A stretch of DNA of 64,000 bases. Origin: Escherichia coli (lineage in GTDB: Bacteria > Pseudomonadota > Gammaproteobacteria > Enterobacterales > Enterobacteriaceae). Below are positions 35,524 to 36,866 of the stretch, one piece after another. Position numbers and translations under genes: made by a program. Numbering within the stretch: the stretch's first letter is position 1; the number at the start of each line of letters is the position of its first letter. Location of the stretch: NCBI RefSeq assembly GCF_024223415.1, contig NZ_CP100500.1, one strand, 5' to 3'. The notes below the pieces were generated by a model. That model saw nothing but the letters and a program-made list of their open reading frames with translations. It was not told the DNA's origin and did no database searches.

Positions 35524-35600
35524 GCTATTTTTGATAGTTCTTGCGGCTAATATGCTCTATATAGTGATGTTCCGATGACTTATGACTATATGGGGCAAAT

Positions 35601-36716
35601 ATGGTTACGCCAGTAAGCATCAGCAATTACATATCTCTTCCTGATGATTTTCCCGTTCGTAATATTGCACCGAAGATAAAAGAAGTTTTAAAGGATTTTA
35701 TTGATGCACTTAGTACAATAATATGTAATGAAGAGTGGCGCACGTCTTTAAACATCAACTCAGCCACAAAAAAGATATTTAATAATCTTGACAACTTATC
35801 ATATATTCAGAGGACTTCTTTTCGGGGTAACGACACGCTATACAATGAAAAGGTTCAGTTTAAACTCACTTATCCCGCCAGGAATGGAAGACACAAAGAA
35901 AATATTGAATTTCAGGTAGTAATAAATTTAAGCCCTATTTATTTAGATAATTTCCGCCATGATGGAGAAATTAATATTTTTTGCGCTCCCAACCCAAAGC
36001 CTGTTACTATGGGGCGCGTATTTCAGACCGGCGTCGAGCGTGTGCTCTTTCTGTTTCTGAATGATTTTATTGAACAATTCCCAATGATCAACCCTGGCGT
36101 TCCCATCAAAAGAGCGCATACACCACATATTGAACCCCTGCCTCCGGATCACCATACCGCTGCAGATTACTTACGCCAGTTTGATTTGCTTGTCCTGAAT
36201 TTTATCTCTCGCGGTAATTTTGTCATACTCCCCCGATTATGGAATAACTCTGAGGTTCACAGATGGTTCGTCAATAAAGATCCTAACTTGATCACCGCCA
36301 TTCTCGACATAACGGACAGCGAATTAAAAGAGGATTTATTGCAAAGCCTGATGGATTCATTAGGTTCTAACAAACATGTACTACCCGAAGTCTGCATCTG
36401 TTTTTTATCCCTTTTAGCAGAACAAGAATCTCCTCATTTTCAGGACTTGTTTTTATTTTTCGCCAATATGTTGTTACACTATCACCAATTTATGAATCCC
36501 AATGAAAGTGATTTGAATGACGTGTTGATGCCAGCATCATTAAGTGATGATAAAATTATCAAACATATGGCGCGCAAGACCCTCAAACTTTTTGTAAAAA
36601 ATGAAACACCGCCAAAAGTTACTCATGAAGACCTGGTGAAAAACAGGCCTCGCTCCCCTGTCAGACCACCTATACCCGCAACCTCCAAAACGCCAGACAT
36701 TCCTGATCGTCATTAA
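35601..36716 (+). CDS. yneK: uncharacterised protein, AT-rich gene (371 aa)
   Basis: 371-aa ORF with no motif I recognise; DNA visibly AT-rich relative to neighbours. Confidence 0.8.
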   Translation: MVTPVSISNYISLPDDFPVRNIAPKIKEVLKDFIDALSTIICNEEWRTSLNINSATKKIFNNLDNLSYIQRTSFRGNDTLYNEKVQFKLTYPARNGRHKENIEFQVVINLSPIYLDNFRHDGEINIFCAPNPKPVTMGRVFQTGVERVLFLFLNDFIEQFPMINPGVPIKRAHTPHIEPLPPDHHTAADYLRQFDLLVLNFISRGNFVILPRLWNNSEVHRWFVNKDPNLITAILDITDSELKEDLLQSLMDSLGSNKHVLPEVCICFLSLLAEQESPHFQDLFLFFANMLLHYHQFMNPNESDLNDVLMPASLSDDKIIKHMARKTLKLFVKNETPPKVTHEDLVKNRPRSPVRPPIPATSKTPDIPDRH

Positions 36717-36866
36717 ACCGTGATGTTTACCGTCTCTCTGACGCGTGAAAGAATCAGCGTCAGAGAAACGGAAAACGCGATCCAGATCACAAATGCATTG
36801 TATTCACATCATTAACCGTTTTAAGATCATTTCATCACTTTTTCGCAACTCACCCGATAATCTGTT

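Follow-up and report, generated by a model that had tools for sequence, protein, structure and literature searches.

yneK of Escherichia coli: an orphan gene on a probable single-gene insertion at the 3' end of ptrR

What is the AT-rich reading frame that sits between a LysR-type regulator and an efflux pump on the E. coli chromosome, and how did it come to be there? We address the question in a 64,000-nucleotide stretch of contig NZ_CP100500.1 (assembly GCF_024223415.1), hereafter the window. The original prediction, made from the letters of this stretch, placed a 371-codon frame within 35580–36720 and named it yneK. The ATG-start open reading frame (ORF) in the program-made list runs from 35601 to 36716 on the + strand (371 codons plus stop), falling correctly inside that bracket. 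Its product matches NCBIfam NF033404, 'putative protein YneK', from end to end (residues 1–371 on profile 1–371; 810.8 bits against a cutoff of 40, E = 1.3e-244), and RefSeq gives 35601..36716 the same label, in agreement with the proposed name. The ORF is the already catalogued E. coli yneK (b1527 in K-12), an uncharacterised gene, and the allele in the window shares 98% identity with the commonest YneK cluster. Both neighbours had also been recognised for what they are, RefSeq annotating yneJ/ptrR on one side and the MFS transporter ydeA on the other; megablast of 5,426 complete E. coli genomes gives the locus order sad-ptrR(yneJ)-yneK-ydeA-marC-marRAB. Non-coding DNA flanks the gene over 77 bp upstream (35524–35600) and exactly 150 bp downstream (36717–36866), where about 150 bp had been estimated.

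The composition of yneK sets it apart from its surroundings, as predicted. Its GC content is 0.392 (0.387 at third codon positions), against 0.533 for yneJ, 0.514 for ydeA and 0.525 for sad, outside the range of the flanks. Among the 45 window ORFs of at least 150 amino acids (aa; mean GC 0.499, s.d. 0.044) this corresponds to z = -2.4, and 300-bp sliding windows reach a minimum of 0.34–0.35 inside the gene. Of all 1273-bp stretches across the 64 kb, only 5% are equally AT-rich, nearly all of them at about 1–3 kb. That region, around an AraC-family ORF (ydeO-like, 253 aa; 2282–3043, - strand), is the most AT-rich part of the window, dipping to 0.35; at GC 0.392 the ORF itself ties with yneK as the lowest of the 45.

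To place the gene phylogenetically, we assembled 80 yneJ-anchored loci, one genome per species, and searched them for YneK, YdeA, MarC and Sad. Among these loci yneK was found only in E. coli and E. albertii (one E. coli contig being filed as a Caldithrix metagenome-assembled genome, MAG), while four further Escherichia lineages (L009–L012, one of them E. whittamii) lack it, as do Salmonella, Citrobacter and all other genera; a survey of phylogenetic distribution, which the original prediction had proposed, thereby confines yneK to Escherichia. The misfiled contig (L008; SMXE01000224.1, 'MAG: Caldithrix sp.') has an E. coli-type locus at 98–100% aa identity, and another (L040, 'Chryseobacterium sp. 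18061') has an enterobacterial-type yneJ locus; in both cases the public genome bin seems to be contaminated or mislabelled.

Where yneK is missing, the site is compact: the distance from the yneJ stop to the ydeA start is 88–210 bp in L010–L012, Salmonella, several Citrobacter and two other genera. Sequence that E. coli has in common with these outgroups runs to ...CTGCTGGAT (35490) and resumes at GAAACGG... (about 36764), bounding a segment with a GC content of 0.397 between 2-kb flanks at 0.522 and 0.504. The left edge lies between 35491 and about 35527, an uncertainty of ~35 bp that arises because YneJ tails differ among genera, and the right edge at about 36745–36765. Beyond it, the region upstream of ydeA (about 36790–36866) is ancestral, with conservation reaching Salmonella. 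The original end of yneJ can be followed across this boundary: ...CATGAAACGGCAAAATGA forms the final codons and stop of yneJ in E. whittamii, most of it (as GACGAAACGGC...AAATGAGAC) is recognisable in the Salmonella intergenic region, and in E. coli the ancestral tail persists as GAGAAACGGAAAACGCGA downstream of yneK. Because the syntenic site is empty in outgroups and a yneJ-tail remnant lies 3' of yneK, we read the ~1.27 kb segment as an insertion. Its interior has no similarity to the empty-site sequences (alignment scores at shuffle level), so the DNA itself is new at this position.

The junctions of the E. coli and E. albertii inserts are identical. Among the YneJ proteins compared, only that of E. 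albertii (ending MSESTKRHDQ, then stop) has a counterpart of the E. coli C-terminal tail, which was probably supplied or remodelled by the insertion. The insert has no terminal direct repeats, and the ORF list places neither an integrase nor an insertion sequence (IS) element within it. It carries one gene and nothing that points to a new kind of system, as had been foreseen. Composition, the empty syntenic site and the stranded tail together support the earlier suggestion of horizontal acquisition, in this case of a single gene. The junction has hosted other genes as well: in more distant genera the yneJ–ydeA interval is occupied by metabolic genes of ordinary GC content, LDH-like and PhzF-like ones included, so it is variable across Enterobacteriaceae. 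A 384-aa ORF without Pfam matches at the same junction in Kosakonia sp. S29 (L038:9608–10762) was considered as a possible relative and found to be unrelated to YneK (hhalign probability 0.1%).

Is yneK a gene under selection, or an open frame by accident? The probability of a 371-codon open frame arising by chance at this composition is about 1e-10. The E. albertii ortholog, in the same synteny, is 74% identical in nucleotides (nt) and 68% in aa, with zero indels over 371 codons; indels did accumulate between the two species in the adjacent non-coding DNA. Differences fall at codon positions 1/2/3 in the proportion 79/58/154, and the ratio of non-synonymous to synonymous substitution rates (dN/dS) is 0.162 (codon bootstrap 0.105–0.226). 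A second E. coli allele (L090:179-1294, from a human gut metagenome contig; P0004) gives concordant values, 0.147 when compared with the window allele and 0.167 with E. albertii. By these substitution patterns yneK is a genuine protein-coding gene under moderate, clearly purifying selection. That selection is 2–20 times weaker than on sad, yneJ, ydeA and marC (dN/dS 0.007–0.066). The products of the neighbours retain 91–98% aa identity between E. coli and E. albertii, against 68% for YneK. The lowest omega within the protein (0.10) falls in residues 136–229, which contain PIKR-HTPHIEPL..HH.AADYLRQFDL.

The second allele is 84% identical to the window allele in aa and 85% in nt, and belongs to a 138-member cluster drawn from E. 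coli and unnamed Escherichia. In yneK its synonymous divergence (dS) reaches 0.59, threefold the value in adjacent ydeA (0.20), yet its upstream spacer is 98% identical, which suggests an old allelic lineage or an import from a divergent Escherichia.

Extensive searches place YneK in no known family. Pfam has no match above threshold (best DUF1140, E = 0.15, below the cutoff), in keeping with the earlier statement that no motif could be assigned; none of the 5027 PADLOC-DB v2 models matches at E <= 10, PHROGs match only at E > 0.06, and a profile search of all Protein Data Bank (PDB) sequences returns matches only at E > 2. With tblastn, 72,556 plasmids and 50,697 phages yielded nothing beyond noise and mislabelled E. 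coli chromosomes or chromosome fragments. An exhaustive phmmer search of 1.84 billion representative proteins recovered 47 matches, all at least 55% identical and all Escherichia YneK, mostly fragments or frameshifted copies; a three-lineage YneK profile at E <= 1 brought back the same 22 clusters, and the named ones come from E. coli, Shigella, 'Escherichia sp.' and E. albertii. Others have published a BLAST survey of GTDB with the same Escherichia-only outcome. On the strength of these searches YneK is an orphan, with no relatives detectable outside Escherichia in the databases searched, and the remote-homology check suggested at the outset returned no known family. An internal repeat, suspected from recurring LKDFID/LNDFIE motifs, was rejected (BLASTP between halves, E = 7.3).

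How the gene is expressed can be approached from its surroundings. In a published DESeq2 table comparing a yneJ deletion with the wild type on glycerol and glutamate, yneK has a baseMean of 14, where the other differentially expressed genes lie mostly between about 60 and several thousand, and it rises 6.9-fold in the mutant (log2 fold change +2.78, adjusted P 0.03). The sole perfect PtrR box in the window (TTCACGAATCGAGAA-like, after the published motif) lies at 34623–34637, upstream of yneJ. Direct control of yneK by PtrR was rejected, there being no box within 3 mismatches in 35400–35700. Because there is neither a nearby box nor a terminator between yneJ and yneK, the rise in the mutant would reflect read-through from the derepressed yneJ promoter, or else polarity of the construct. 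With no intervening terminator, yneK is likewise expected to be transcribed, at least in part, by read-through from the PtrR-autoregulated yneJ promoter. The gene would be kept almost silent in laboratory conditions, which is compatible with, though not proof of, xenogeneic silencing.

The spacer ahead of yneK is better conserved than the gene itself. In a 100-bp bin (35523–35622) the two E. coli alleles share 98% identity, compared with 85% over the coding sequence, and the spacer is well conserved in E. albertii too; such conservation argues for a functional regulatory or leader element. A simple scan of the spacer detected neither a canonical sigma-70 promoter nor a terminator. AT-rich DNA tends toward non-specific RNA polymerase binding. 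In vitro genomic systematic evolution of ligands by exponential enrichment (gSELEX) has mapped peaks for RpoN/NtrC and RpoH to the spacer and one for RpoS to a point just within yneK. A sigma-54 promoter, at which the gSELEX peaks hint, was rejected in the spacer, where no GG-N10-GC core stands in consensus context.

Downstream of the gene lies a conserved stem-loop. The RNA fold of 36717–36800 reaches -31.7 kcal/mol (z = -5.1), and the 9-bp core stem is unchanged in four alleles, including a deletion remnant and E. albertii; a single C-to-U change keeps a G-U pair. The yneK transcript may end at this structure or be stabilised by it. It is not a canonical intrinsic terminator: no U-tract follows (GCGAUCCAGAUCAC does) and a terminator scan gave 0 sites. 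Rfam finds no RNA family in 34000–39500 at E <= 1. The right arm coincides with the ancestral yneJ-tail remnant, which it overlaps, and the left arm belongs to the insert, a composition implying that the end of the insert is an inverted copy of its target (18/20 nt). By chance, such inverted pairs are estimated at about 1e-4 in the region.

YneK (42.8 kDa, pI 6.4) is predicted to be soluble, with no signal peptide or transmembrane segment (maximum 19-residue hydropathy 1.17). Structure-based annotation, for which the original prediction had thought the gene a good candidate, did not succeed: two AlphaFold2 runs, from 5 and 24 sequences, gave a mean predicted local distance difference test (pLDDT) score of 47 and 43, because the YneK alignment is too shallow. 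Only the secondary-structure layout recurred across both low-confidence models (Table 1). From this layout we would picture YneK as soluble and cytoplasmic, built of an alpha/beta part at the N terminus, a helical bundle in the C-terminal part and a basic tail rich in proline. The invariant block PIKR-HTPHIEPL-HH-AADYLRQFDL, around residues 168–196, could form a ligand- or metal-binding or active site that is of benefit in a particular niche, perhaps in connection with the polyamine, γ-aminobutyric acid (GABA) and nitrogen-stress genes nearby. That YneK is a conditionally expressed, ligand- or metal-binding accessory protein of the cytoplasm, served partly by the ptrR promoter, is at best a doubtful proposal.

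Our preferred account can be set out in full. Early in the history of Escherichia, an AT-rich segment of ~1.27 kb with a single gene entered one lineage within yneJ/ptrR or right at its 3' end, giving YneJ a new C-terminal tail and leaving the old tail stranded downstream of yneK. E. coli, Shigella and E. albertii have since inherited the gene at this one position, and the purifying selection on it has been moderate. We regard it as very likely that yneK is a real gene on a single-gene insertion, and the whole explanation, with origin, expression and protein role taken together, as probable. Several observations weigh against it. The insert has no donor, mobility gene or target-site duplication that we could find. 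No occupancy of yneK (b1527) by H-NS was found in the published H-NS and chromatin datasets searched, and the higher yneK level on deletion of yneJ may be artefactual, through polarity of the construct. The YneK models are unreliable, the proposed domain layout resting on the secondary structure of two low-confidence runs, and in the databases searched no homology lends support to any biochemical role. Lastly, the distribution is awkward: an outgroup, E. albertii, has yneK, while three lineages nearer to E. coli have a clean empty site and an intact ancestral yneJ tail.

This last point can be taken further. We drew the relations of the flanks from a pairwise distance matrix, setting aside a neighbour-joining tree that was distorted by missing data for two loci. 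The flank topology is ((E. coli, L009), (L010, L011, L012)), then E. albertii, then Salmonella and Citrobacter; measured from E. coli, L009 lies at 5.6%, L010–L012 at 11–13%, E. albertii at 16% and Salmonella/Citrobacter at about 24%. The presence and absence of yneK is at odds with this tree, so an extra event is needed, and deletion alone is inadequate because it could not restore the ~18 nt of ancestral yneJ tail missing from the insert-bearing allele. Two explanations fit the pattern: in one, homologous recombination between early Escherichia lineages replaced one allele by the other; in the second, presence and absence of the gene long coexisted as a polymorphism. A few bases immediately right of the junction (GATCCAGATCAC) are common to E. 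coli, E. albertii and L009 and differ from those of the cryptic lineages and Salmonella, as would be expected had the allele moved along with the sequence right beside it. Between E. coli and E. albertii, yneK has a dS of 1.20, similar to and no lower than that of the flanks (0.78–1.17), so any transfer would be ancient. L009 (Escherichia sp. MOD1-EC7003; L009:7850-8036) represents a third state of the locus, with an E. coli-type left edge and a shortened yneJ tail (..VPD, then stop), followed by ~60 nt of filler similar to neither insert and then by an ancestral yneJ-tail remnant fuller than that of E. coli.

Within E. coli the gene is often lost. The full locus is present in 4,233 of the 5,426 complete genomes, and one deletion allele, retaining about 30 yneK codons and the 3' end, in 1,116 (~21%), ABU 83972 among them. 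Further losses comprise a deletion of yneK that extends into the 5' part of ydeA and an IS1-associated truncation; in Shigella sonnei a truncated YneK cluster counts 3,818 members. yneK is thus dispensable, having been deleted or truncated several times independently. Rare predicted proteins are chimeric, joining a LysR domain to YneK (P0002, P0006 and P0019) or YneK to a MarR domain (P0007); these presumably stem from frameshifts or from deletions spanning ydeA–marC, in an interval that is often rearranged. Published phenotypes also touch the locus. Butanol-resistant laboratory-evolved strains have lost yneK-ydeA-marC, an effect that the authors credit to marC, and a constructed deletion of the wider yneK...marR sub-region raised isobutanol tolerance. 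The Keio yneK mutant was a hit in a screen for CRISPR-associated transposon (CAST) transposition that then failed validation. A pangenome study linked yneK to adherence to bovine cells, but the signal co-varies with that of marB at a distance of 4.5 kb, and the authors of the study suggest linkage to an unknown effector; the association may also reflect the lineage-wide yneK deletion allele.

Such repeated, independent losses invite the view that yneK is a functionless relic drifting towards a pseudogene, and the very low transcript level, the Keio mutant's want of a validated phenotype in the CAST host-factor follow-up, and the failure to find homologs or a confident fold all agree with it. 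A relic, however, would not be expected to hold dN/dS at 0.15–0.17 across three lineage pairs (upper bootstrap bound 0.23), to keep its frame free of indels through ~26% nt divergence while adjacent non-coding DNA gained them, or to sit behind a spacer conserved at 98%; we consider this reading very unlikely. De novo birth in place, from non-coding yneJ–ydeA DNA, would account for the absence of homologs from everything searched, and AT-richness and poor structure prediction are typical of young genes. The ancestral interval, though, measures only 88–210 bp and is unlike the interior of the insert, and a 1.1 kb open frame in DNA of 39% GC has the chance probability of 1e-10 given above, which leaves birth at this site with a very slim chance. 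The frame may instead have been born de novo in a donor genome.

Two functional proposals bear on the protein rather than its origin. A role as a secreted or host-interaction factor, for instance an ancestral ETT2 type III substrate, would see a secretion signal in the uncharged N terminus and eukaryote-like docking in the proline-rich tail. The N terminus is uncharged and rich in Ser, Ile and Pro; a simple composition comparison does not set it apart from other window ORFs, and the locus annotation has no chaperone gene near yneK. We hold the idea to be highly improbable. Single-gene anti-phage defence might be suggested by an AT-rich, weakly expressed and often-lost accessory gene, a profile common for defence genes. 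The 0 of 5027 PADLOC models matching even at E = 10 speak against it, as do the fixed chromosomal position with vertical-like divergence, outside any prophage or defence island, and a product in which no effector motif, nuclease and NTPase included, can be recognised. Defence genes also tend to be exchanged widely, whereas YneK has no homologs in other taxa. A defence function seems most improbable.

A more ambitious version of our preferred account, a single-gene insertion carrying a selected gene, deserves mention. In it YneK would found a structurally new family, and the insertion would have rewired the ptrR locus (a new PtrR C terminus, read-through from an autoregulated promoter) as part of an accessory role in putrescine, GABA and nitrogen stress. 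We think this quite unlikely. Were it true, YneK would bind a metal or ligand and act, as a lineage-specific part of E. coli and E. albertii, in their putrescine, GABA and nitrogen-stress response. The conserved spacer might then receive NtrC/sigma-54 input, and the incongruent distribution would be the trace of an old transfer of the allele between species or of a presence/absence polymorphism that long persisted.

Table 1. Features of the yneK locus and of its product (window coordinates; residue numbers for YneK)
Feature	Position	Strand	Basis
yneJ/ptrR, LysR-type regulator	34642..35523	+	ORF list, RefSeq annotation
Last 10 codons and stop of yneJ/ptrR, lineage-specific	35491..35523	+	YneJ C-termini compared across 15 loci
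Inserted AT-rich segment, about 1273 bp	35491..36763	.	Junction alignments against E. whittamii, two further Escherichia lineages, Salmonella and Citrobacter
yneJ–yneK spacer and 5' leader	35524..35600	+	Sequence elements, conservation
Dyad CTAT-N5-ATAG, in spacer	35525-35537		
TATATA/TATAGT -10-like element, in spacer	35558-35565		
GGGG, 5 nt before the yneK ATG, in spacer	35592-35595		
Conserved stem-loop, 20-nt arms, 12-nt loop	36725..36776	+	Inverted repeat I1, 90% complementary
Remnant of ancestral yneJ 3' end and stop (GAGAAACGGAAAACGCGATCCAGATCAC)	36764..36790	+	Aligns with ...CATGAAACGGCAAAATGAGACGTAGATCAC of E. whittamii and the Salmonella intergenic region
ydeA, MFS L-arabinose exporter	36867..38057	+	ORF list, RefSeq annotation
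Helices	YneK about 24-61		Low-confidence AlphaFold2
Three-strand meander	YneK about 66-110		Low-confidence AlphaFold2
Long helix	YneK about 135-159		Low-confidence AlphaFold2
Irregular segment	YneK conserved His-rich block		Low-confidence AlphaFold2
Helical bundle	YneK about 230-332		Low-confidence AlphaFold2
Disordered, basic, proline-rich tail (24% Pro) with invariant RPRSPV	YneK C-terminus		Low-confidence AlphaFold2

Elsewhere in the window, a lambdoid prophage tail module (53486–63447) departs from the host average in the opposite direction to yneK, with a GC content of 0.53–0.60. It includes a resolvase/invertase (53486–54076), a tail fibre (54749–57247), a GpJ tip-attachment protein (57982–61395) and tail I and L proteins. 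A 100% match to the window over 35400–36900 comes from E. coli O78 strain 3 (NZ_CP084096.1), in which gene offsets elsewhere differ and a Qin-type prophage takes the place of the tail module.

As a real gene under selection, yneK is worth study among the remaining fully uncharacterised genes of E. coli K-12. It offers a datable single-gene insertion with reconstructed junctions and an altered ptrR 3' end, a clean natural presence/absence marker (one deletion allele in ~21% of complete genomes), and a tidy case for the origin of orphan genes and the homologous replacement of accessory alleles between Escherichia species. What is added here is the reconstructed insertion, the long-term purifying selection, the catalogue of losses and an incongruent distribution that would imply ancient allele replacement. 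Sequence and structure inference on YneK is exhausted with current data, so that only experiments will go further.

Set beside known systems, the window gene is that of NF033404 and K-12 b1527 itself, with a full-length equivalog match and the same synteny, sad-ptrR-yneK-ydeA-marC. With H-NS-bound acquired genes it has in common a low GC content (~0.39 against ~0.51 for the host), insertion relative to outgroups and a very low transcript level; its segment is short (1.3 kb) and free of tRNA, integrase and IS. Phage morons are autonomous single-gene insertions having their own promoter and terminator. yneK resembles them as a single ORF inserted between two older genes, with a conserved upstream region and a 3' stem-loop, but differs in lying outside a prophage, in having no phage homologs, in a stem-loop lacking a U-tract and in the absence of a detected canonical promoter. 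With E. coli ORFans it shares AT-richness, fast evolution, a narrow clade and weak expression; at 371 aa YneK is much longer than is typical of these, it is demonstrably selected, and its insertion site and junctions can be reconstructed.

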